Positions 5,743-49,909 of a DNA stretch of 64,000 bases are shown one piece after another. The stretch's first letter is position 1; every line of letters begins with the position of its first letter. The notes under the pieces were generated by a model. It saw only the letters and a list, made by a program, of their open reading frames with translations, made no database searches and was not told the origin of the DNA. The DNA comes from Candidatus Dojkabacteria bacterium (GTDB taxonomy: Bacteria; Patescibacteriota; Dojkabacteria; B142; JAFGFJ01): positions 472,652 to 536,651 of the forward strand of contig JAFGFJ010000006.1 in the NCBI GenBank assembly GCA_016931155.1, in the 5' to 3' direction. The position numbers and the translations under genes were made by a program.

Positions 5743-6336
5743 ATGTCTGACATAGCAAACCTCTCGGATAGAGTATATAGGCAAATGATAAATCCTCTTT
5801 TTGAACTTCCTGTTGGAGATGATGCTCCAAAAGAGATAAATATGCTTGTCGAGACTCCAATGGGTTCAATTAATAAGTTTGAGTTCCATACGAATACGGG
5901 TCTTATCAAACTTGACAGAGTTCTTTTCGAGAAACTTCCTTATCCTATTGAGTATGGAGCGATTCCTCAAACCTGGGATGAGGATGAAGATCTTCTTGAC
6001 ATTATGTCTTTGATTACATATCCGACATTCCCTGGTTGTTTAATTTCCGTAAGACCGATTGGGGTGATGATGTTCAATGATGGTGGAGAAAAAGACGATA
6101 AGATATTAGCAGTTCCAGTTAATGATATTAGATTCAGCAATGTAAAAAGTCTTGATGATATTAGTGAGCATCAAAAAGATGAAATCGCTTTCTTTTTTGA
6201 AAGGTATAAGGATCTTCAATTTAAGTATAAAGGTGAAAAAGATAAAAAAGTTGTTGTCGAAGGGTGGGGAGAGACTGAAGCAGCATACAAAATAATTGGA
6301 GATGCACAGGAACTATTTATAAAGACGTTTAGTTGA
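5743..6336 (+). CDS. ppa: inorganic pyrophosphatase (family I)
   Basis: ETPMGSINKFEF, KLDRVLF, YPIEYGAIPQTWDEDEDLLD signature blocks. Confidence 0.9.
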   Translation: MSDIANLSDRVYRQMINPLFELPVGDDAPKEINMLVETPMGSINKFEFHTNTGLIKLDRVLFEKLPYPIEYGAIPQTWDEDEDLLDIMSLITYPTFPGCLISVRPIGVMMFNDGGEKDDKILAVPVNDIRFSNVKSLDDISEHQKDEIAFFFERYKDLQFKYKGEKDKKVVVEGWGETEAAYKIIGDAQELFIKTFS

Positions 6337-6345
6337 GATTATTAT

Positions 6346-8379
6346 CTACGAATCACGTATTATAGTCGACCCGGGAACCTCTCTTTCGATATGATTTAAT
6401 AATTCTTGATAACTTTTTATATGCGGATGAATAGAATCTCTTCTTATGTTCATCTCGTGGAAATATCTTGCTGCATATACCAGATCAGTGATGGCTGTGG
6501 AATCACACAGTGGGCTGCCTTGCAGGTCAGGGATTGACATGAACTGATGTACGGTTCTACGCAGGTAGTTTGCAATTGCATCTATTGAAGTCTTATCACT
6601 ATCAGAATCTTTTTTTGTATTATTTTTTATTGCGCAAACCCCACCTATAATATGGATTTTTTCTACTAAACCAAACAGTTGATAACTATACTCAGGAGGT
6701 ATTTTGAGAAGTGTATCGAGATTAAAATCAGACAAATTACCAGAGAAAAAGTCAAGCTCAAAGTGAAAGTCTTGATCTAAATTGGGTCTAATCAATTTTT
6801 CATAGATCTGAATTGCGATTTGGAGTCGAATTTTTTTGTCATTTTCTGTAAGACTATCAAGGAAGGATCCATAAAAAACCGAATTTTCTCCAAGATTAAA
6901 ATCAAATAATTCTGCAGGAGTGTAGTTAACTAAACCTTTTATGCCCAGTTTCTCATTCCCGAAAGTAAGAGCTTTTATTGCTTCGATATAAGTAGCAATA
7001 TATTTTGTATAGCTTTCTGTGCTAAATGTTTCTGGATACATATTTATAAAGGGTGTGGGGAATTTCCCCAGGTGCTCAATTGCATGACCAGATTCGTGCC
7101 AGAGTGAACGATAGTATCCTGGTCTTATAGTTTGAAGTGTAAGATCTATGCTTTCACCTTTGAAAGTGTTTTTTTCTGCATTTAGGCTTAATCTTTTTGG
7201 AAGGGTAAGCATTGCCAGCGGAAAAATTAATCCAAATTCCGTTTCAAGAAAATCTCTTGTTCCCAAAATATTGACTGAGGGGTCAACAGGGATGTCAATA
7301 TTTCTTGCTATCTTTGGTATTACTGTTCTTAATTCTTCTGTATAATTTTCCGGCTCAATTTTGGTATTAGAAAATATCTCATATAATCCTCTTATTTGTT
7401 CATCATCTGATCTGGAAGGATTTTCTCCAGTAGATATTAAAGTATATAACATGTCTGGCATTGCTATCATCCGGACAAAGGGAAGTTGAGACAATCCTAG
7501 TTTTTCTGCAAATGATTGAATAGATGTGTGGAGTTCTGAGAGTAGTGATAATTTCTCAGGACTAATCTGACTGACAAATTCAGAAGTTGGGGCTCTGTTT
7601 TCCTCAAGGGTTTTTGTGGTCGCCTCTGTTTGTAATGCTGGATCATTGGTGTTTTCATTTGGGTGTCTTGTAACTGGTTCATTTGGTTGTTCAGTACTCC
7701 CGCTATCACCTTTTGAAGGTATAAGATTAGTCCCTACCCCTGTGGCTCCTAGTGTAATACAAAAAAAAACTATTTTTTTGAGAACATTTCTTCTGTTTCT
7801 TTCGTGCGGTAACAGACTGTTATCTTTGATTTTTTTTCTTGCATTTTTTGCCAGTTCTTTTGTTCGTTTATCTTTTGCATAAGACTCCAATAGTTCAAGT
7901 CTAACAACGTATTGCAGTTGATCAGTATTGTGCCTTCCATCAAACGGTCGATTTCTTTGATTGTCTTTAGAAGGATCAGTTTTCAATGCACCCTCAGTTA
8001 GAGCTTTGATCAATTCCTTGTTACTCAACGGTTCATATCCTAATGTTTCTGCTGATCTTTTTACTTCTGTAATTGTTTTGAGCATTGCAGTAGATGTTTC
8101 TCTATCAAGTACGATTTTTTCAAGATCCAGGAGGGAAAGAGTATGAACAGTCAATAAAATGTCTTCACTGTTTTTTTCATCGTAATAGTAGGCATTATCA
8201 ATTCTTTCTAAAATGTGTTCAATGAAATGAGTGAGTCTTATGGGGTCAGCATTCAAGTACCTTCCTTTTATTGGATTAGTTGCTATCCCAGAGTCACCGC
8301 TGAAGAATATGTCACCAAACGTAAAATCTGGGGAATACATGGTTGCAGAAGCACTTTCTGTTTTATCTGGTAAGACCAT
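6346..8379 (-). CDS. large hypothetical membrane protein with a C-terminal HExxH zinc-metallopeptidase-like domain
   Basis: 677 aa; single TM (IVFFCITLGATGVGTNLI) around residue 200, low-complexity linker, then YRSLWHESGHAIEHLGKF (HExxH). Confidence 0.6.
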   Translation of the reverse strand: MVLPDKTESASATMYSPDFTFGDIFFSGDSGIATNPIKGRYLNADPIRLTHFIEHILERIDNAYYYDEKNSEDILLTVHTLSLLDLEKIVLDRETSTAMLKTITEVKRSAETLGYEPLSNKELIKALTEGALKTDPSKDNQRNRPFDGRHNTDQLQYVVRLELLESYAKDKRTKELAKNARKKIKDNSLLPHERNRRNVLKKIVFFCITLGATGVGTNLIPSKGDSGSTEQPNEPVTRHPNENTNDPALQTEATTKTLEENRAPTSEFVSQISPEKLSLLSELHTSIQSFAEKLGLSQLPFVRMIAMPDMLYTLISTGENPSRSDDEQIRGLYEIFSNTKIEPENYTEELRTVIPKIARNIDIPVDPSVNILGTRDFLETEFGLIFPLAMLTLPKRLSLNAEKNTFKGESIDLTLQTIRPGYYRSLWHESGHAIEHLGKFPTPFINMYPETFSTESYTKYIATYIEAIKALTFGNEKLGIKGLVNYTPAELFDFNLGENSVFYGSFLDSLTENDKKIRLQIAIQIYEKLIRPNLDQDFHFELDFFSGNLSDFNLDTLLKIPPEYSYQLFGLVEKIHIIGGVCAIKNNTKKDSDSDKTSIDAIANYLRRTVHQFMSIPDLQGSPLCDSTAITDLVYAARYFHEMNIRRDSIHPHIKSYQELLNHIEREVPGSTIIRDS

Positions 8380-39285: not shown

Positions 39286-40683
39286 TCACTGAGCTGAAAT
39301 GCTTTCGATAGTTTTTTCAATCATACCCCTAAAGCCGTGTGAGCCTGTGAACAGAATAATCCTTTTCCCCTTGATTTTTATCAGATGATCGATAAGTTCA
39401 TTATCAATCGGGAAATAATTTACCTTGTTATGTGTTTTTGAAATAACTTCAGAAAGTTCTTTTCCTCCAAGCCGGAAAAGTCTGTCTCTCGTTTTGGTGG
39501 TTGAAAGTCTAGGAATTATAACTTCTGTTGCATTCTTGAAAACACTATTGTACAGCGGGATAGCCTCTTTCGTTCTGTTTCCTGCATTTGGCTCGAAAAC
39601 TACTACTATTTTGTGTTTTGGATATTCTTCCTTAACTGCACTCAAAGACCCTCTGGCCTTTGAAGGTGTGCTTCCAAAGTCGTCAATCACCATGCAGTCA
39701 TTTATGTTCATCCTGACTTCAAGTCTTCTCTTGATTCCGCTGAAAGTTTCTATTCCATCTTTTATTGCTTCTGCCGGTATGTCAAGATTTCTAGCGAGAG
39801 TAGCAGCTCCGGTTATATTTATTTTATTGTGTTTTCCTATTAGCTTTGTCTTATACGAAAAGTCTTTTTCATTATATTCGTAAAAAATTACTTTTGCTTT
39901 TGCGTTTTCAACTACTTCTTCGATATTTTCTCCTTCTTTACTGGCTACTATTAGGCCATCCTGGGGGACTGACTCGACAAGTTTTTTAAAATTATCAACG
40001 TATGCCTTCTTTGTAGGAAATATATCCGTATGGTCATGCTCTGCAGAAGTAATGACTAAGTACTTCGGGTGGTAATGGAAAAATTTGGATGTTTGGTCGT
40101 AGCATGAAGTTATATATTCATCGCCCTCTGTTATACTCCATTCAGTTGTTTTGTCTTTTAGTTTTATTCCATCTTTTATATTGTTCGCTAATGCCCCAAT
40201 CATATAACTGATTTTCTTGTTTGCTTTATGAAAAATATTTACGAGAAGGGCTGTAATGGTTGTTTTCCCATATGTACCAGTAATAACAATAGAATTTTTG
40301 TCTACAATTTGATGTTTTTCCAGTACTTCAGGGTATGATTTCACGGTGAGTTTTTTCTTTTTGGCAAATAATAGCTCAGGATTTTTTGATGAAATAGAAG
40401 CACCGATTATCACTAAGGTTGGAAAGTCAGGAAGTCCAGACCTTATTCCCTTGCTATATTTTTTTCTGTAATAAGCTCTTGTAAGGTGTTCTTTTCTGAA
40501 TCCTACCTCTACAGTGATAGCTTTTTCTATCAAATAAGTACTCATTGGTGGGTAAAAGGCTTTGTCAGAACCAGTTATGAACCATCCATTTTCCTTAAAT
40601 GCGTTTGCCATTGGAGCCATTGTGACGCCAGAAATGCCTATCAAATGTACCCAATTTACTTTTTCCTTACAGGATCTTTTCAT
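39286..40683 (-). CDS. Mur ligase of the MurC/Mpl family (Mpl-like YPPMST motif)
   Basis: HLIGISGVTMAPMANAF...GSDKAFYPPMST, P-loop TGTYGKTT, SAEHDHTD. Confidence 0.85.
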   Translation of the reverse strand: MKRSCKEKVNWVHLIGISGVTMAPMANAFKENGWFITGSDKAFYPPMSTYLIEKAITVEVGFRKEHLTRAYYRKKYSKGIRSGLPDFPTLVIIGASISSKNPELLFAKKKKLTVKSYPEVLEKHQIVDKNSIVITGTYGKTTITALLVNIFHKANKKISYMIGALANNIKDGIKLKDKTTEWSITEGDEYITSCYDQTSKFFHYHPKYLVITSAEHDHTDIFPTKKAYVDNFKKLVESVPQDGLIVASKEGENIEEVVENAKAKVIFYEYNEKDFSYKTKLIGKHNKINITGAATLARNLDIPAEAIKDGIETFSGIKRRLEVRMNINDCMVIDDFGSTPSKARGSLSAVKEEYPKHKIVVVFEPNAGNRTKEAIPLYNSVFKNATEVIIPRLSTTKTRDRLFRLGGKELSEVISKTHNKVNYFPIDNELIDHLIKIKGKRIILFTGSHGFRGMIEKTIESISAQ

Positions 40684-40836
40684 TTGCTAAATTCTATTCG
40701 AAAAGGGGTTCAAATACAAACCTTCTCCTGAACAAAAATGTTGAACAAACTGGTTAATTTGCCTTTTCAATTCTGGAATTTGCACAAATTGCTAAAATCT
40801 TGACACCCCAATCTGTTGTTGTTACTCTAGCTATGC

Positions 40837-40852
40837 CACACAAAATGTTGTG
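40837..40852 (+). promoter_or_regulatory. candidate NrdR box ACACAAAATGTTGTGC
   Basis: 13 of 16 positions match the consensus acaCwAtATaTwGtgt, in the 364-bp divergent region upstream of nrdR. Confidence 0.35.
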
Positions 40853-41047
40853 CTTGGCAGAGATTAAGTCTGGGGTAGACTTTTGATTTCAAGTAGTAAT
40901 TTAAGTGTATATGTAGGGATTGTTGTTGCACCTTTAGCCGTTGTTGCTACCTCTTTTTAGTCTCCAGAGTTGAAGATAACCCTTTGTTTAGAAGGTTAGT
41001 TGAGATGCCCCAAAAATTGGAGACTGTTTAATTGATTTTGGAAAAAA

Positions 41048-41512
41048 ATGTTTTGTCCATATTGTCATTTTGAAGATACTAAAGTCGTTGATAAAAGAGA
41101 TAATGATGAAACGGCTGTTACCAGAAGAAGAAGGGAATGTTTGGGCTGTGGGAAAAGGTTTACTACTTATGAGCGTATAGAGACTATTCATCTCAATGTA
41201 GTGAAAAGAAGCGGGAAGATGGAAGAGTTTGACCGGGAGAAACTCAAAAGAGGGATAATGAAAGCAGTAAAGAAAAGACCGATAACTGAAAAACAGATAG
41301 ATGAATTGATTGATGATATTGAATTGAAGCTATTAAACAGGAAAAGCACGGAAATAAAGAGTACAGAGATAGGAAAAATGATCCTGACGAGACTTAAAAA
41401 GCTTGATCAGGTGGGTTATATACTTTTTGCGTCAGTGTACAGGGATTTTAATGAGATAAATGACTTTGAAAGAGTGCTTGAGGAATTGAAAATGCCGAAT
41501 GGGAGTGATTAG
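41048..41512 (+). CDS. nrdR: transcriptional repressor NrdR
   Basis: Zn ribbon MFCPYCHFEDTKVVDKR...CLGCGKRFTTYE followed by an ATP-cone. Confidence 0.9.
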   Translation: MFCPYCHFEDTKVVDKRDNDETAVTRRRRECLGCGKRFTTYERIETIHLNVVKRSGKMEEFDREKLKRGIMKAVKKRPITEKQIDELIDDIELKLLNRKSTEIKSTEIGKMILTRLKKLDQVGYILFASVYRDFNEINDFERVLEELKMPNGSD

Positions 41513-41553
41513 AGGTTTTGTTTGAGTTTTGGGTTTATAAAGCTATTTAACTA

Positions 41554-43350
41554 ATGCCGAAAAACCTTGCCATAAAACCAGAGCTTACTCCAAATGCGCT
41601 CTTCATTGCTGAAAAGAGGTATTTTAAGCTGGGAAAGGACGGGAAACCTGAAGAAAATCCTTCTCAAATGTTTAGACGTGTTTCGAAGTTTATTGCTTCT
41701 GCGGAAAATAAACTCAACGATAAGAAAAAAGGCTACAAGAAACCTGCAGCAAAAAGACTAAAGGAGATAGAGGATTCATTTTATGAGATTCAGTCAAATT
41801 TGGAATTTCTACAAGGAATGACTCTTCTTGATAGAGGAAAAGAAGATCTGGTTGCTGCCTGTTATGTTATGCCAATTAAGGATTCTCTTGAATCGATCTA
41901 TGGTACTCTTGCAAATACTGTTACTTTGCACAGACGGGGAGCGGGAGTAGGTTATGATTTTTCTGAGATCAGACCGGAAGGGACGATTATAAATTCGACC
42001 GGGAAAGAGGCAAGCGGTCCGATTTCATTTATGAGGCTCTATGATTTTTCCTCGGAGGTTATTATGAATCGCGGATCGGTCAGACATGCGGGTCATATGG
42101 GAATTTTGAGAATTGATCACCCTGATATAGAAAAATTTATCACGGCAAAAGAAGATTATACTCAGCTTACAAATTTCAACATTTCCATAGCAATTACGGA
42201 TGAGTTTGTTAAGGCTCTGCGAAAAGGCGGGAAATACAAGCTTGTTCACGATGGGAAGCCTTATGGAGAAGCTAACGCCAGGGAAATGCTTAGAAAAATT
42301 ACAGAAAGTATTCACCGAAGCGGTGAGCCAGGATTTATATTTATTGATGAAGTAAACAGGTTTAATCCTACTCTCAATGTTGGTAAGATGACTGCTACAA
42401 ATCAATGCGGAGAACAGCCGCTTCTGCCGTATGAGGCCTGTAATATAGGATCTATTATTTTGAATAGATTTGTAGTTCCGGAAGGTGATGGTGGTGATAC
42501 AGGAGCAAAGAAGCCGGAGGACAGGATAAATTGGGAACGTCTGGAATATGTAGTAAAAGTTGCTGTCAGATTTTTGGACAACACCATTACAGTTGCAAAT
42601 CACTTACTTCCGGAAATTGAAAAGATTGTTATGTACGGGAATAGAAAGATCGGACTTGGTGTTATGGGCTGGGCTGACCTCCTTTATGAACTAAAACTGC
42701 CATATAACTCAGAAGAAGCTCTGGATTTAGCTGAGGGAGTTATGAAATTTATCGAAAAGACAGGACACGAAGCGTCACAGGAATTGGGTATTGAAAAAGG
42801 CGACTTTGGTAATTTCAAGGGAAGTAGGTGGGATAAGAAAGGCTATAAGCATATGAGAAATGCCACCGTAACTACAATTGCACCAAATGGCACTACGAGT
42901 CTGCTGGCTGAAGTTAGTGGTGGGATTGAACCGGTTTTCGCTCTTGGCTATGTGAGGAAAAACATGGAAACAGTTGGGGAAAATGTGGAAATGCTTTATG
43001 TAAATTCTGGACTGGAAAGAGCACTCAAAGATAAGTGGCTTTATTCGAAAGATTTGATGGCCAAAATTGCGGGGAAGGGAACTCTGGAAGGTTTTACTGA
43101 AATCCCTGATGAGCTTAAAAAGGTGTTTGTAACTTCTTACGATATAAGTTCAGAGTGGCATTTGAGGATGCAGGCCGCATTCCAAAAATACACAGATAAT
43201 GCCGTTTCGAAAACTATTAACCTGCCGGAAAGCGCAAAAATAGAGGATATCGAAAAAGCTTTTATTCTTGCGACCGAACTTCACCTGAAGGGTCTAACTA
43301 TATACAGGGACAAAAGCAGGGACAAGCAAGTACTAAATTTGAATAAATGA
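41554..43350 (+). CDS. nrdJ: class II (adenosylcobalamin-dependent) ribonucleotide reductase catalytic core, short form without C-terminal redox tail
   Basis: AACYVMP (C225 equivalent), [17 protein letters not shown] (thiyl Cys, Glu, C462 equivalent), TIAPNGTTS finger loop; 598 aa. Confidence 0.9.
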   Translation: MPKNLAIKPELTPNALFIAEKRYFKLGKDGKPEENPSQMFRRVSKFIASAENKLNDKKKGYKKPAAKRLKEIEDSFYEIQSNLEFLQGMTLLDRGKEDLVAACYVMPIKDSLESIYGTLANTVTLHRRGAGVGYDFSEIRPEGTIINSTGKEASGPISFMRLYDFSSEVIMNRGSVRHAGHMGILRIDHPDIEKFITAKEDYTQLTNFNISIAITDEFVKALRKGGKYKLVHDGKPYGEANAREMLRKITESIHRSGEPGFIFIDEVNRFNPTLNVGKMTATNQCGEQPLLPYEACNIGSIILNRFVVPEGDGGDTGAKKPEDRINWERLEYVVKVAVRFLDNTITVANHLLPEIEKIVMYGNRKIGLGVMGWADLLYELKLPYNSEEALDLAEGVMKFIEKTGHEASQELGIEKGDFGNFKGSRWDKKGYKHMRNATVTTIAPNGTTSLLAEVSGGIEPVFALGYVRKNMETVGENVEMLYVNSGLERALKDKWLYSKDLMAKIAGKGTLEGFTEIPDELKKVFVTSYDISSEWHLRMQAAFQKYTDNAVSKTINLPESAKIEDIEKAFILATELHLKGLTIYRDKSRDKQVLNLNK

Positions 43351-43508
43351 ATAAATTTGAAAAAAGAACAATAATTATAGATTCGAGAGGGAATAAGGCA
43401 AATCTTTATGCTTCCGCTTACAGCGAGCAAGAAGCGAATAGAGCCATGGGTATGCTCGTCGATGAGATGTTTATTGATATGAGTATTGAAAATGGAAACA
43501 AAAGATAA
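43347..43508 (+). CDS. 53-aa ORF translationally coupled (ATGA overlap) to the first nrdJ stop
   Basis: MNKFEKRTIIIDSRGNKANLYASAYSEQEANRAMGMLVDEMFIDMSIENGNKR; below the 60-aa track cutoff, found by manual translation. Confidence 0.3.
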   Translation: MNKFEKRTIIIDSRGNKANLYASAYSEQEANRAMGMLVDEMFIDMSIENGNKR

Positions 43509-43568
43509 AGCAAAATTTTACATTGTGTTTACCAGAGTTTGTTGTTTATTTAATTTGCAGGAACAAAT

Positions 43569-46500
43569 ATGAGAAAAGGAGGAAAAACATCTTCAGTAGA
43601 TGATAAACTCCCCGCAGTTTACACTGAAGGCTCGGTTCAGCTTCTGAGAAAAAGATTTCTTAAGACCGATGATGAAGGTATACCAATAGAAACCCCTGGA
43701 GATATGTTTGCTAGAGTTGCTGAAGGTGTTGCAAAAGGGGATCTGGTCTTTAATAAGGGCAAGAAGGAAGCCAAGAAAACAGAGGCAGAGTTTTTTGACA
43801 TGATTTACAATCTTCGCTTCATACCCAATTCTCCAACTCTTCTGAATGTCGGGAGAAACAACAAAAACTTTGCGGCCTGTTTTGTACTGCCTATAGCGGA
43901 TTCTCTCTCTGAAATTTATTCGACTCTAAATGAAGCAGTTAATGTTCAGTGGAAAGGCGGGGGAACGGGTTTTAATTTTTCGCCAATAAGACCGAAAGGC
44001 GACATGGCAGGAGGGATTCCAGATGTTGCGGCAGGACCTATTCACTACATAAAGACCTTCTCGACAGCGATGATGGGTGTGAGGCAGTCCGGTAAAAGGG
44101 GAGGCGGAAATATGGCAATACTCAATGTGGATCATCCGGATATTTTGGAGTTTATACATCTCAAAGAGCAGGACAGAACGATAATGAATTTCAATATTTC
44201 TGTTGGAATTACCAATATATTTATGAAAGCTCTTCAGGAGGATACTACATATGATCTGGTAAATCCTCGAAATAATGAGGTTGCCGGGCAGTTGAGTGCA
44301 CGACAGGTATTTGACGAAATTGTTCAGCTTGCTCACAAGACAGGTGATCCCGGTCTTGCTTTCATAGATAATATTGAAGCTGACAACAAAACTCCACTTG
44401 TAGGGAAGATGGATGCTACAAACCCTTGCGGCGAACAGCCTCTTCTTCCTTATGAGTCGTGTAATCTTGGGGCAGTAAACCTCAGGGTAATGTTTGATCA
44501 GAAGAAGAACATACTTAACTGGGATCTTCTTAAAAAAACAATTCATACAGGTGTTCATTTTCTGGATAATATTGTTGAAATAAACAATTATCCGCTGGAA
44601 AAAATAGAGAAAGTTACAAAGCATACAAACAGAAAGATTGGTTTGGGACTAATGGGATTTGCTGACCTGCTTATGATGATGGAGATTCCCTATAACTCTG
44701 AAAAAGCCTATAAATTTGCTGAAAAATTGATAAAATTTATTGAAGATGAAGCAATTAAGGAGTCGATCAGGCTTGCGAAAAAGCGTGGAGTTTTTCCAGC
44801 ATACAGTGGAAGTGTATGGGAGAAAAGGAAGCTCCCTGTAAGAAATGCTACTCTCACAACAATTGCTCCAAACGGTAACACAAGTCTTATTGGGGGGTCT
44901 GTTGGGGGTATTGAGCCATCATATGCTCTTGCATACAAAGTAGGAGGTGTTGAGGATAGAAGCTACAGAGCTACAGAGGTTATATTCAACGTATCGGAAG
45001 GGTTCAAGCATCTTGCTAAAAAACACGGATTTTACAAACCTGAGGTAATTGAAAAAATAGTTAATGGAGTGCCTGTTTCTGCTATTAAAGAAATTCCGGA
45101 AGGTGTTAAAAAAGTGCTTGTAACGGCTCTTGATATCTCACCGATGGATCACTTAAAAATGCAGGCAGCTTTTCAGAAGAATGTTGATAATGCAATTTCC
45201 AAGACAATAAATTTTCCGAATGATTCAACTCCGATGGATATAAAGAAAGTCTACATTGAAGCGTACAGGCTTGGTCTTAAGGGTGTAACAATTTATCGGG
45301 ATGGGAGCAAAAGCGGGCAGACACTCGTTTCGAGCGACAACAAAGGAAAATTGAATGTGGAAGGGACAGGTGGAGAAAAATCCGGCAACGAATCAGATGG
45401 GATGAAAATGGAACCTGCTCCTATTCTTACGTCAAATGCACTTCAGGTTCTTGAGAAAAGAGCTTTAAAGAAAAGCGAAAATGGAGAAATAATTGAAACT
45501 CCCGAGGAGCTTTGGAGAAGAATCGCAAAACATGTTGCGAAAGCTGAGAAGAAGGATAAGCAAAAAGAATGGGAAGGGAATTTTTTTACGGTTTTTAATT
45601 CTGCTGAATTTTTAAGCGGGGGTGCGCTGATTTATGCTGGTCTCGGGGAACGTGCGATTCTTTCGAAATGTCTTGTTCTACCTGTTGACGACTCGATAGG
45701 TAGTATTTTCGAGAGTCTTAATATGAATATTGAAATGCTTAAACGAGGTGTTGGTACAGGGTTTAATTTTTCAAAGATCAGGTCATCTTATGCTGTTGTG
45801 AAAACGACTGGAGAGCATGCAGCAGGACCTATTAAATATCTGAAACTCTATGATAGTGCACAAGACACTCTTACCGGTCGTGGTGGTAGAGGGCTTGGCT
45901 CGATGGCGATACTTAATGTGGATCACCCCAATATTGAGGAGTTTGTAAATTTGAAGGACGATCTAAGTGCGATCCATCATTACAATATTTCTGTTGGTGT
46001 GAGCGACAAATTTATGAAAGCGGTTAAAAGTAATGCAAAGTGGGATCTGGTAGATCCACATGATGGGAATGTTTATAAAACGATTAAGGCAAAGGAGCTT
46101 TTTAATTCGATAGCAAAGCATGCGTGGTTGAGTGGTGATCCTGGAATCTTTTTCCTGGATACAGCTGAAAAGGGGAATACAACTCCTGCTCTTGGAAAGA
46201 TGGATGCTACAAATCCTTGCGGTGAGCAACCCCTTATCCCCTATGAAACCTGTAATCTCGGCAATATTGATATTTCAAAAATGATAAAGGGAAATCCATA
46301 TGCACTGGATCCAGACCTTTTGGATGCTCCTTTCAAGGAGAAGATGAGATTTGTGAATTGGGAAAGACTGGCAGAGGTTACACGTATTGGAGTGAGATAC
46401 CTTGACGATATTATTGATGTAAACACTTATCCTATAAAGGAGATTGAGGTGATGACTAAAAAGACTAGAAATGTAGGGTTGGGAATAATGGGGCTTGCTG

Positions 46501-47933
46501 ACTTCTTCATAAAACTTGGTATCCCATACGAAAGTGATGAAGCAGTAAAGGCATCAGAAGAGGTAATGAAATTTATTCAAAGTGAGGCACATAAATATTC
46601 TGAAGCTTTGGGGAAAGAGAAGGGAAATTTCCCGGCTTTTAAAGATAGCACATGGAGGAAGAAAGGAAAGAAATACATGAGAAATACAAGGACAACGACT
46701 ATTGCTCCAACAGGTACAATTGCAATTGTTGCAAACTGTAATCCGGGGATTGAGCCTGTATTTGCTCTTGGATATCGAAGAAAGAACTCGATGGGGGGGA
46801 CGGATCAGTTGGTGATTGAACCTTTGTTTATTGAGGTTGCAATGCAAAGAGGTTTTTACTCAGATGAACTTATTAATGATATAGCAGACGGAAAACACTT
46901 AAGTGAAATTAAAGAAAAATATAATATTCCTGATGATGTGGTTAAGGTTTTTGTCACGACTCATGAAATAGATCCAAAGCGGCATGTACATATCCAATCG
47001 GCTTTCCAGAAATACGTTGATAGTGCTGTTTCAAAAACTATCAATTTGCCAAACTCTGCAACTCCTGAGGACATAGAAAGGGTTTATGCACTTGCATATG
47101 ATCTCGGCTGTAAGGGAATTACTGTATTTAGAGATGGAAGTAAAGATCCGGCTCTCCAGGTGGGGGTTGGTGTAAGAGATAATTCAGCTTCTGACTTTCC
47201 AGCAGATAGGCAAAGTGGCGAACAGTCTGGTAAACAGGATGGCACAAGAGAGACCTTTGAGCCAAGGGATCGCGCAATGGTAACAAGAGGTACTACTACT
47301 AAACTCAAGACAGAACAGGGAAGCCTTTTCGTGACTATAAATGAGGATGAAAAAGGAATTGTGGAGGTGTTTCTGGTGCTTGGAAAGAGCGGAAGCTTTA
47401 CTACAGGTTATACAGAGGCTATTGGAAGACTTGTCTCTATGTCTCTGAGAAGTGGTATAAAGGTGGAGAATATAATTGAACAGTTAAAAGGAATAAGAAC
47501 TTCCATGCCTACAATGAACAAAGGTATGATAATTTACTCTGTACCTGATGCTGTTGCCAAAGTGCTTGAGCAGTATGTTGAGAATAAGAAAGGGCAGGTG
47601 GAAATGTTTGAAGCTCAGCCTGCATCTGTAGCTGATGTAAAAGATGCGCCGGAATCCAGCTCTGTAAAATCTGTCCCTGAATCTCCCGAGACGGAAACAG
47701 AAGAGGAGGAGAAGTCAGAAGATGAGGAGAAAAATGAACGACCCGCTAAAGAAATCACACCGAAGCTTGACGCAAAAATCAGTGACAAGGAATCAAACCA
47801 TGTTGACGGTAAGTTCTATAGCAAAAATAATGTAATGGGTGATTTACTGGAGTGTCCGGAATGTGGTGGAGATCTGGAATATGCAGAAGGGTGTATTCTA
47901 TGTAGAAGTTGTGGGTATAGTAAATGCGGATAA
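43569..47933 (+). CDS. nrdJ: giant class II ribonucleotide reductase: two complete NrdJ catalytic cores fused in tandem, plus one C-terminal tail domain and a terminal CxxC...CxxC zinc ribbon
   Basis: Core A (~43569-45350): [33 protein letters not shown]. Core B (~45402-47150): [33 protein letters not shown]. Then [24 protein letters not shown] tail and ECPECGG...[13 protein letters not shown]. Cores are ~45-50% identical to each other and to the upstream nrdJ. Confidence 0.9.
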
Positions 47934-48759: not shown

Positions 48760-48802
48760 TTTCGGTATTCTTTCGGTATAATATTTCGGTTAAGTTTCAG
48801 TA
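48760..48802 (+). promoter_or_regulatory. Three to four phased TTTCGGTA-type repeats overlapping a TATAAT box and the start codon of the lexA-operon first gene
   Basis: tttcggtattc tttcggtataatat ttcggttaagtttcagtATG read directly. Confidence 0.35.
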
Positions 48803-49266
48803 TGGATTTAGTTGCACTTCAAAAATTTCTTTACGAATCTACTTCGGAAATATATGCGAACCCTGAGGTTAGAATAATTGAGGAAAAGGATGGCTCGCAT
48901 ACGATAGTGTGTATAAATGGAAGCTTCACTCTTCATGACAATTATTTCGGAGGAGAGCCTTTCGGAGGTAGAGAAGTAATTTTTGAAAATAATAAGCCTG
49001 TATGGATGATGGTCTATTATGGTTCGGTTACGAATCGTTTTAAAAAGCTTGGGTCAGTTTACTCATTTCTGAAAGAAGCTCTTCGGAACAATACTAAGAA
49101 TATGCCATATAGGGGACCTAAGAAATACAAAAAAGATGAGTGGCTTTATAAAAACGAACTTAAGGGAGATATGAAGTCTTTCATCGGAGAAGAGAAAATA
49201 TTTTATAAGGATAAGATGGTTTATTCTGCAAATTATCAAGGAGGTCTGATAAATAATAATGAATAA
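48802..49266 (+). CDS. hypothetical protein, first gene of a probable two-gene operon with lexA
   Basis: 154-aa ORF ending 16 bp before lexA. Confidence 0.5.
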   Translation: MDLVALQKFLYESTSEIYANPEVRIIEEKDGSHTIVCINGSFTLHDNYFGGEPFGGREVIFENNKPVWMMVYYGSVTNRFKKLGSVYSFLKEALRNNTKNMPYRGPKKYKKDEWLYKNELKGDMKSFIGEEKIFYKDKMVYSANYQGGLINNNE

Positions 49267-49282
49267 TTTTTAATCAATTTAT

Positions 49283-49909
49283 ATGACATACGATTTAGCT
49301 AGACCGACTATTCAACAGAAAAATATTCTTGATTTTATAGAATCATACATAGCTAAAAATGGAGTATCTCCAACTCTTCTTGAAGTGAAAGATCATATCG
49401 GTGTTAACTCTCTAGGCACTGTATACGAGCATCTGGATAAACTTGAATCAAAAGGGCTCATACAAAGAGATAAAAATGCTCCACGTGGTATAAGGTATCT
49501 GATAAATGTCGGAATATGTATTGGAGAAATGATACAAATCCCAATGGTCGGGACAATTCAAGCGGGATACCCTATAGATTTTGACTTTGATTCATCAGAG
49601 ACTATTGAACTACCCGTGAATTTTATTAAGGGAAAAGATGTTTTTGCTCTTGAAGTAAAGGGTGACAGCATGGTAGATGCTTATGTGACGGAGGGTGATA
49701 TTGTGATCTGTGAAAAAACAAATAGTGTAAGAGACGGTGACATGGTGGCGGCAATGGTTGATCACAGGGAAGCTACCTTAAAGAGGTTTTTTAAAAAGAA
49801 AGGAAGAATAGTTTTAAAACCGGAAAATCCCAAATACAAAGATATTGTCAGGAAAACAGGAGAAATAGAAGTGCAGGGCAAAGTACTTACAATTATTAGA
49901 AATCTTTAG
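49283..49909 (+). CDS. lexA: LexA repressor (S24 peptidase)
   Basis: N-terminal winged HTH; A-G cleavage site (IQAG), catalytic Ser in GDSM and Lys in ATLKRF. Confidence 0.9.
   Translation: MTYDLARPTIQQKNILDFIESYIAKNGVSPTLLEVKDHIGVNSLGTVYEHLDKLESKGLIQRDKNAPRGIRYLINVGICIGEMIQIPMVGTIQAGYPIDFDFDSSETIELPVNFIKGKDVFALEVKGDSMVDAYVTEGDIVICEKTNSVRDGDMVAAMVDHREATLKRFFKKKGRIVLKPENPKYKDIVRKTGEIEVQGKVLTIIRNL

Follow-up and report, generated by a model that had tools for sequence, protein, structure and literature searches.

Introduction

Ribonucleotide reductase (RNR), which produces the building blocks of DNA, is an essential and much-studied enzyme. In its textbook form, effectors re-program the substrate choice of one active site at a homodimer interface, and each chain has a redox tail. 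Here we describe a class II RNR (NrdJ) gene cluster in which this layout appears to be changed. The cluster lies on the plus strand between positions 41048 and 47933 of a 64,000-nt stretch (the window) of contig JAFGFJ010000006.1 from a Candidatus Dojkabacteria bacterium. Its four co-directional open reading frames (ORFs) encode the repressor NrdR, a 598-amino-acid (aa) NrdJ core without a C-terminal tail (J1), a 53-aa protein, and a 1454-aa tandem NrdJ-NrdJ (the giant protein) in which two further cores, A and B, are followed by a single cysteine-rich tail. A sequence-only reading of the same DNA had pointed to three diverged cores with one redox tail in one NrdR-headed cluster; our analysis bears this out, agrees with the ORFs and coordinates of all four genes, and finds that the arrangement is also a conserved trait of the lineage.

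The best sequence and structural match of the cores is the NrdJ of Thermotoga maritima (PDB 1xje, 3o0o). The cores have the same catalytic residues and likewise no monomer-type insertion, and the giant protein resembles native T. maritima NrdJ in its long C-terminus ending in a cysteine-rich domain (CRD). However, T. maritima NrdJ is encoded by one gene and forms a homodimer with a tail on each chain, whereas the window encodes three paralogous cores, with two joined covalently, and one tail, and the residues of loop 2 and of the S91 motif differ from those of T. maritima in J1 and core B.

The six-cysteine C-terminal array of the giant protein is the same as that of NrdJd of Stackebrandtia nassauensis, in which the CRD feeds electrons to the active site, also between subunits and especially in higher oligomers (Loderer et al. 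2017, PMC5704485). In that enzyme, an active-site mutant mixed with a CRD mutant restores activity dependent on tris(2-carboxyethyl)phosphine (TCEP), mainly in the higher oligomers induced by deoxyadenosine triphosphate (dATP) (PMC5704485). Unlike the proteins described here, NrdJd is a homo-oligomer with a CRD on each subunit, and its transfer in trans was shown with engineered mutants only, whereas here two of the three cores would depend on it entirely. A tail-less core that relies on an IscU-like and zinc-finger module encoded elsewhere in the operon is also known from the split NrdJa + NrdJb of Pseudomonas aeruginosa, in which the CRD is on a separate polypeptide (PMC5704485). In the split enzyme, however, a small protein of its own forms the module, and NrdJa is extended at its C-terminus by a docking domain, whereas here the redox module is joined to another complete catalytic core and J1 lacks any additional domain. 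The monomeric NrdJm (the RTPR of Lactobacillus leichmannii) also builds, within a single chain, the specificity site for which a dimer interface is normally required; it has an insertion that mimics the partner helices and a short two-Cys tail, whereas here a whole second intact core is fused. Paralogous class II RNRs with a single CRD per genome also occur in Frankia and Alphaproteobacteria that have two NrdJd (PMC5704485). This case comes from a different lineage and is mentioned in passing, and that paper, as read here, states no fusion, third core or conserved operon.

A full-text literature search, with subscription journals and RNRdb notes outside its scope, found no paper on tandem NrdJ or on the RNR layout of Patescibacteria, and the two most relevant RNR papers (PMC5704485, PMC9669993) do not mention tandem cores. 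The parts of the module are all of a known kind, namely a dimer-type NrdJ core, an IscU-like domain, a CRD and NrdR. What appears to be new, going by this literature, is the architecture: a pair of diverged catalytic cores fused covalently, a third paralogue that is obligate and has no tail, and one CRD only, found Patescibacteria-wide.

Results

Three NrdJ cores with complete active sites

J1 (41554-43350) is assigned to the class II RNRs by its match to TIGR02504 (580.7 bits against a cut-off of 399.95). The giant protein (43569-47933) reaches 1195 bits over two stretches, each of them a full NrdJ core with Ribonuc_red_lgN and lgC domains: core A (aa 1-584; 43569-45320; Pfam lgN + lgC) and core B (aa 617-1195; 45417-47153; Pfam and NCBIfam). 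For PF02867, the E values are 1e-115 for J1 and 2e-231 for the giant protein. The RTPR family TIGR02505, for which the cut-off is 340, gives 66-91 bits only. J1 and 1xje, the crystallised core of T. maritima NrdJ, match over their full lengths (E 4e-105), and none of the cores shows the monomer-type insertion when aligned to this structure. The D and R columns of the dimer type (alignment columns 244 and 275) are 100% conserved in the J, A and B families. Compared in pairs, the three cores of the window are only 40.6-41.1% identical.

All three cores carry the equivalents of T. maritima C134, N320, C322, E324 and C333. These are C103, N283, C285, E287 and C296 in J1; C104, N285, C287, E289 and C298 in core A; and C701, N882, C884, E886 and C895 in core B. 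The five residues are invariant within each family, in about 115 orthologues each that span 45-100% identity. We then selected the columns with a conservation of at least 88% in 42 diverse outgroup NrdJs (145 columns) and examined them in the J (113 sequences), A (119) and B (119) families; most of these columns are also kept, mostly at 100%, in the three families, and the RN, APxG, EP and SKTxN motifs are invariant in each. Judged by sequence, all three cores keep a complete active site, and because the catalytic residues and most of the outgroup-conserved columns are kept in all three families, the cores do not appear to be pseudo-enzymes.

Adenosylcobalamin (AdoCbl) is the predicted radical generator, by analogy with the closest homologue, the AdoCbl enzyme of T. 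maritima. In two relatives (L004 and L048), a cob(I)alamin adenosyltransferase gene adjoins the module. The three cores of the window contain no interrupting insertions of the intein type. Many of the nearest NrdJs from outside the Patescibacteria (the outgroup P0246-P0373) are 1000-1650 aa long with the core split into two to four matched stretches, probably by inteins.

A single redox tail among three cores

The only cysteines of J1 are C103, C285 and C296, and those of core A are C104, C287 and C298. J1 ends ...IYRDKSRDKQVLNLNK, at the same endpoint as the crystallised T. maritima core 1xje, and its stop comes 13 residues after the YR motif of the barrel. The earlier claim that the 598-aa NrdJ ends right after the barrel with no Cys tail is therefore upheld, and a Cys pair is found neither in J1 nor in any of its 110 full-length homologues, all of which (110/110) end in 10-35 aa devoid of Cys. 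No six-Cys array is found at the end of core A. The A-B linker (aa 585-616, 32 aa; 45321-45416), which is rich in Gly, Ser, Lys and Glu and predicted to be disordered, has no cysteine at all. In 102 homologues the A-B linkers have a median length of 39 aa; any Cys is present in only 10 of them, and none is conserved.

The redox tail follows core B only, as the sequence-only reading had placed it. It includes a Cys-free TSCPD/IscU-like domain (aa 1248-1336; 47310-47576; PF12637, E 1.9e-22), continues as an acidic low-complexity tether of 88 residues with 26% Asp+Glu (aa 1337-1424; 47577-47840), and ends in the six-cysteine zinc-finger CRD, which together with the stop codon occupies 47841-47933. 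The six cysteines lie at residues 1429-1453, start with CPEC-x9, and match the CRD described by Loderer et al. (PMC5704485). Long class II C-termini are known to consist of an IscU-like domain and a zinc finger, with the IscU-like part being Cys-free in most (Burnim 2022, PMC9669993). The tether is poorly conserved in an alignment of 88 sequences, and the CxxC-x(8-14)-CxxCxxC-x(3-4)-C motif is present in 119 of the best 120 homologues of the giant protein. J1 has no TSCPD domain.

No NrdJb-like separate CRD protein is present in the cluster, as the sole small ORF, of 53 aa, contains no Cys and does not match TSCPD. A motif search of the window found no thioredoxin, glutaredoxin or NrdH-type CxxC gene, and the sole CPYC is that of the NrdR zinc ribbon.

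The module is conserved across Patescibacteria

Two full cores are present in all of the best 120 homologues of the giant protein. When one genome per GTDB species was scanned with the J-family alignment, 38 loci were obtained, all in metagenome-assembled genomes (MAGs) of the Patescibacteria type. Of the 29 loci whose contigs extend far enough downstream, all have a two-core zinc-finger gene after the tail-less nrdJ on the same strand; in six further loci the contig end falls inside the second nrdJ, so that a second nrdJ follows in 35 of 35 informative loci. Two of the remaining loci end within the J gene itself, and one (L045) is not a member. With 41% identity, 739 aa and no downstream tandem gene, L045 (Peribacteria) was rejected from the J family. 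An apparent pair of unfused A and B genes in a Doudnabacteria locus (L043) was also rejected, as the frame is broken by a run of N.

The recurring order is (nrdR), tail-less nrdJ, zero to three accessory genes, and the tandem nrdJ-nrdJ-TSCPD-zinc finger. It was seen in Dojkabacteria (L001, L002, L005 and L006-L008), Kerfeldbacteria (L003), Doudnabacteria and other Patescibacteria (L004 and L047). A distant variant, L048 (5839-12668), has a 720-aa protein at the J position that carries a TSCPD domain with several cysteines and no zinc finger. In this locus the first NrdJ gene is followed by the gene of a 1351-aa tandem NrdJ and by the cob(I)alamin adenosyltransferase gene (cobA), and two nucleoside diphosphate kinase (NDK) genes are located a few kb downstream.

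Some of the module-bearing records (L016, L017, L019, L023, L024, L030, L032, L033, L035-L037, L039 and L042) have doubtful MAG labels, with titles such as 'uncultured Candidatus Saccharibacteria' or 'uncultured Gammaproteobacteria'. These titles are probably wrong, because the proteins are 50-70% identical to those of Dojkabacteria and Kerfeldbacteria and the synteny is the same.

Each core family has its own loop 2

The departures of the three families from the outgroup cluster in the PNSPTLxNAG motif, which holds the equivalent of T. maritima S91, in GGGTGF, and in specificity loop 2. The consensus of loop 2 is QGGxRRGAN in the outgroup, RGAxRHAGH in the J family, QGKxRGGGN in the A family and GRGxRGLGS in the B family; loop 2 of core B is divergent. 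At the position of T. maritima R207 an Arg is invariant in all families; the Gln equivalent to Q203 and the Ser equivalent to S91 are retained in A only, and J and B also deviate in the GGGTGF motif. From class I and II structures, we take the residues of loop 2 to read the effector and to select the substrate base, and the S91-equivalent Ser to contact the substrate. The yeast Q288A structure was among the matches of the fold search. Because each loop or motif variant is strongly conserved inside its own family, the cores look functionally differentiated rather than degenerate.

The cores are distant paralogues

A neighbour-joining tree of 112 cores (100 bootstraps) was built with outgroups that were the best matches to J1, so that its distances are biased. 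In this tree, the J cores, including the tail-less P0243, form a clan with bootstrap 78, the B cores form a clan with bootstrap 100, and the A cores form two sub-clans with bootstraps of 100 and 92. The J, A and B families are as distant from one another as they are from NrdJs of other phyla, and for this reason they are ancient paralogues. The phylogeny suggested by the sequence-only reading as a check on such ancestry is thus favourable as far as distances go, with weak deep nodes: the bootstrap is 35 for A and B as sisters and 3 for J with A+B, values that favour neither a triplication in the ancestor of the Patescibacteria nor separate recruitments.

Core A occurs in two types. The 'canonical' type (GGGTGF / RQxGKRGG) is found in the window and in the homologues that have an insert of about 190 aa in the linker, and the 'divergent' type (PGSRVLYEAG / NGGTGF / LQGKKRGGGNM) in most other homologues. 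Compared with the nearest relative (P0002, with its partner P0123), J1 is 77% and core B is 78% identical, whereas core A is only 46% identical; with core A of the lineage that bears the insert (for example, P0010), core A of the window shares 61-68% identity. This difference in identity implies that core A was exchanged between lineages, in a domain-level recombination swap.

The linker insert of about 190 aa is present in 18 of the 120 tandem homologues (P0003-P0018, P0036, P0056 and P0104). In P0010 (residues 601-787; locus L005, 7001-11815) it matches the Ham1/ITPase family PF01725 with an E value of 3.2e-5, just above the gathering score, and in P0003 it has no Pfam match. A Ham1-like insert would put a pyrophosphatase for non-canonical deoxynucleoside triphosphates between two RNR cores.

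Predicted structure of the fused cores

To address the A:B intramolecular pseudo-dimer, residues 1-1195 of the giant protein were modelled with AlphaFold2 from the alignment of 88 sequences. The cores were predicted with confidence, with a predicted local distance difference test (pLDDT) score of 89 overall and about 90 for core A, and linker residues 585-616 had a pLDDT below 50, in keeping with the predicted disorder. The closest solved fold is that of T. maritima NrdJ, with template modelling (TM) scores of 0.81-0.83 (1xje and 3o0q). The A:B single-chain pseudo-dimer is put forward here as a hypothesis.

NrdR and the gene order of the cluster

The first gene, nrdR (41048-41512), encodes a repressor of 154 aa with a Zn ribbon and an ATP cone (PF22811 and PF03477), and matches TIGR00244 with 174 bits against a cut-off of 125 (E 1.5e-51). 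Upstream of it, the plus strand has an NrdR-box-like palindrome, ACACAAAATGTTGTGC (40838-40853), with one mismatch to ACACWANATNTWGTGT; this is the sole site in the window with fewer than three mismatches to the NrdR-box consensus. The candidate box that had been placed at 40837 is thus present in the sequence, one position further on. The classical pattern is a tandem pair of boxes, whereas a single box is predicted here, and no convincing second box was found in the window. A promoter-like site, TTGGCA-16-TAGACT (40854-40881; 9/12 positions in a consensus scan), follows directly, so that its -35-like TTGGCA at 40854 abuts the candidate box; promoter-like matches across the region are no commoner than in shuffled sequence, and this site is weak on its own. 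Among related loci, NrdR-box-like sites with up to two mismatches are found upstream of nrdR in 15 of 21, against a background of 0.04 per kb, and the gene that immediately precedes the tail-less nrdJ is nrdR in 27 of 38. Through the box at 40838, NrdR would adjust transcription to the nucleotide pool.

Along the cluster, nrdR and nrdJ1 are 41 bp apart, nrdJ1 and the 53-aa ORF overlap by 4 bp (ATGA), and 60 bp separate this ORF from the giant gene, whose ATG is preceded by AGGA. A terminator scan found no plus-strand terminator-like hairpin between the genes, and hence no sign of the separate transcription of the 598-aa gene that would have spoken against a joint system.

Discussion

A proposed shared tail acting in trans

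We propose that these genes encode a Patescibacteria-type class II RNR module that works as a hetero-oligomer, in which one CRD re-reduces three non-equivalent active sites in trans; we give this proposal an even chance of being right. Each turnover would leave a disulfide in the active site, and since J1 and core A have no cysteine beyond the three catalytic ones, they would be unable to shuttle electrons internally. The single CRD, on its tether of about 90 residues, would re-reduce all three active sites in trans within the hetero-oligomer, the likely assembly combining a J1 dimer with the pseudo-dimer that A and B form within one chain. Because loop 2 and the substrate-contact motif differ in a family-conserved manner, the three sites are probably not equivalent, and they may split the four substrates, or the effector responses, among themselves.

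The sequence-only reading had already suggested a tail acting in trans in a hetero-oligomer. The trans-acting tail has gained from the absence of spare cysteines in J1 and core A, from the precedents of NrdJd and NrdJa+b, and from L048, whose TSCPD domain without a zinc finger on the J protein is as expected if TSCPD mediates association and the zinc finger is shared. The hetero-oligomer itself is a prediction, and the AlphaFold2 model, with a predicted TM score (pTM) of 0.57, leaves the orientation of A and B loose. In the fullest form of the proposal, all three cores would belong to one holoenzyme, with A-B as a natural heterodimer, each site hard-wired or differently gated for its ribonucleotide, and one zinc-finger domain shared by all; we consider this form unlikely.

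Several points weigh against a shared tail. The pTM does not fix how A and B are oriented, and the complex of J1 with the giant protein is a prediction. J1 is the most conserved of the three paralogues (mean consensus fraction 0.76 versus 0.69), and could equally be an autonomous housekeeping enzyme with another reductant. In relatives, nrdJ1 is set apart from the tandem gene by one to three unrelated genes (NUDIX, DnaQ-like exonuclease, DUF1653 or small ORFs), so that tight co-translation is not enforced. About a quarter of the class II tails that lack a zinc finger are Cys-free, with their re-reduction unexplained (PMC9669993), and the native reductant of the CRD is described as unknown in the abstract of the NrdJd paper (PMC5704485). 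Substrate specialisation of the cores, which may occur, has the loop differences as its only basis.

The conservation of J1, the genes between nrdJ1 and the tandem gene in relatives, and the Cys-free class II tails found elsewhere (PMC9669993) would also fit two independent enzymes, in which the A-B-CRD protein is self-sufficient, J1 is a homodimer re-reduced without the CRD, for instance by some protein or small thiol that reduces the active site directly, and the operon serves co-regulation only. The Frankia and Alphaproteobacteria that have two NrdJd with a CRD on one only (PMC5704485) point the same way. We regard this explanation as possible, if doubtful, since J1 has no cysteine beyond the catalytic three and no thioredoxin, glutaredoxin or NrdH-type CxxC protein was found in the window by the motif search. 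It also leaves aside that a second nrdJ follows J in all of the 35 informative loci, with the CRD-bearing two-core gene in all 29 complete ones, and that the J protein of L048 keeps a docking-type TSCPD domain without a zinc finger.

Another explanation is that one or two cores have no catalytic activity and serve as allosteric or structural partners that provide a dimer interface and a specificity site, an option that the sequence-only reading had also raised. The two-core fusion does resemble a pair of enzyme and pseudo-enzyme, and in J and B the canonical Ser and Gln (equivalent to S91 and Q203) are missing and both GGGTGF and loop 2 are altered. However, pseudo-enzymes normally lose catalytic residues, and the five catalytic residues as well as the RN, APxG, EP and SKTxN motifs are invariant in about 115 sequences of every family. 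Moreover, the deviating positions are strongly conserved within each family, which argues for an altered rather than a lost function. The 100% conservation of the catalytic residues in all families weakens this option, and we hold it to be distinctly improbable. Misassembly, read-through from one gene into its neighbour, or a recent local duplication without functional significance can be dismissed: the source is a MAG and L043 at first looked split, but that split is due to a run of N, independent samples and sources have yielded more than 120 full-length homologues with two cores, identity between the cores is only about 41%, and each core family is a separate, well-supported clan.

Small ORFs, accessory genes and flanking region

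The 53-aa ORF (43347-43508), whose start overlaps the nrdJ1 stop in ATGA, has no Pfam or NCBIfam match, and a large protein search returned the query alone. By tblastn, orthologues of 45-58 aa with 40-55% identity (E 1e-9 to 1e-12) were found in three Dojkabacteria loci (L001 5809-5985, L006 4991-5128 and L007 8612-8788), always between nrdJ1 and the tandem gene, and they share the pattern SKFEKxTIxI ... SExDLNxA. The family is thus small and lineage-restricted. In another sub-lineage, an unrelated small ORF occupies the same overlapping slot (L002 4555-4800 and L008 7791-8246, which share 51% identity). L005 also has an unannotated 205-aa ORF (6275-6892) between its two nrdJ genes.

Genes for the nucleotide pool or DNA hygiene, namely NUDIX hydrolases, a DnaQ-like 3'-5' exonuclease and DUF1653, are found in or beside the operons of relatives, and among such relatives a dCTP deaminase/dUTPase gene replaces nrdR. 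The inserted genes are located at 4704-5802 in L001, 5000-5878 in L002, 6219-6686 in L003, 3904-4446 in L005, 7884-8615 in L007 and 8249-9133 in L008.

Upstream, the cluster is flanked by a divergent Mur-ligase gene on the minus strand (39286-40683), and the region between this gene and nrdR (40684-41047) houses the NrdR box. The divergent Mur-ligase gene is kept upstream of the RNR operon across Dojkabacteria (L001, L002 and L005-L008), and in these relatives a small unannotated ORF and a HIT-family gene come after it. Downstream of the cluster are genes for a CAAX-protease-like membrane protein, a DUF5680 protein (48802-49266) and LexA (49283-49909). The LexA repressor gene (PF01726 + PF00717) lies about 1.3 kb past the RNR genes, directly after the DUF5680 gene.

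Implications for Patescibacteria

The giant and 598-aa proteins are each 100% identical to NCBI entries of Candidatus Dojkabacteria, where the NrdJ proteins all have the same label, 'adenosylcobalamin-dependent ribonucleoside-diphosphate reductase'. One shared database name for the three proteins hides the architecture.

To our knowledge, every other class I or II RNR has one allosterically re-programmed site. If the three-site holoenzyme is true, the job of that one site would be divided among paralogous sites. A natural covalent heterodimer with a third paralogue and one common domain for docking the reductant would then allow the specificity signalling and the electron transfer from the tail to be dissected site by site, which in homodimers requires engineered mixtures of mutants. 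The genomes of Patescibacteria are tiny, and because about 6.2 kb of nrdJ coding sequence is kept in them, the module probably meets a real functional need. Its AdoCbl dependence, predicted as above, would add to what Patescibacteria must obtain from their hosts or community. A whole bacterial radiation appears to use an RNR layout unlike that of the textbook.

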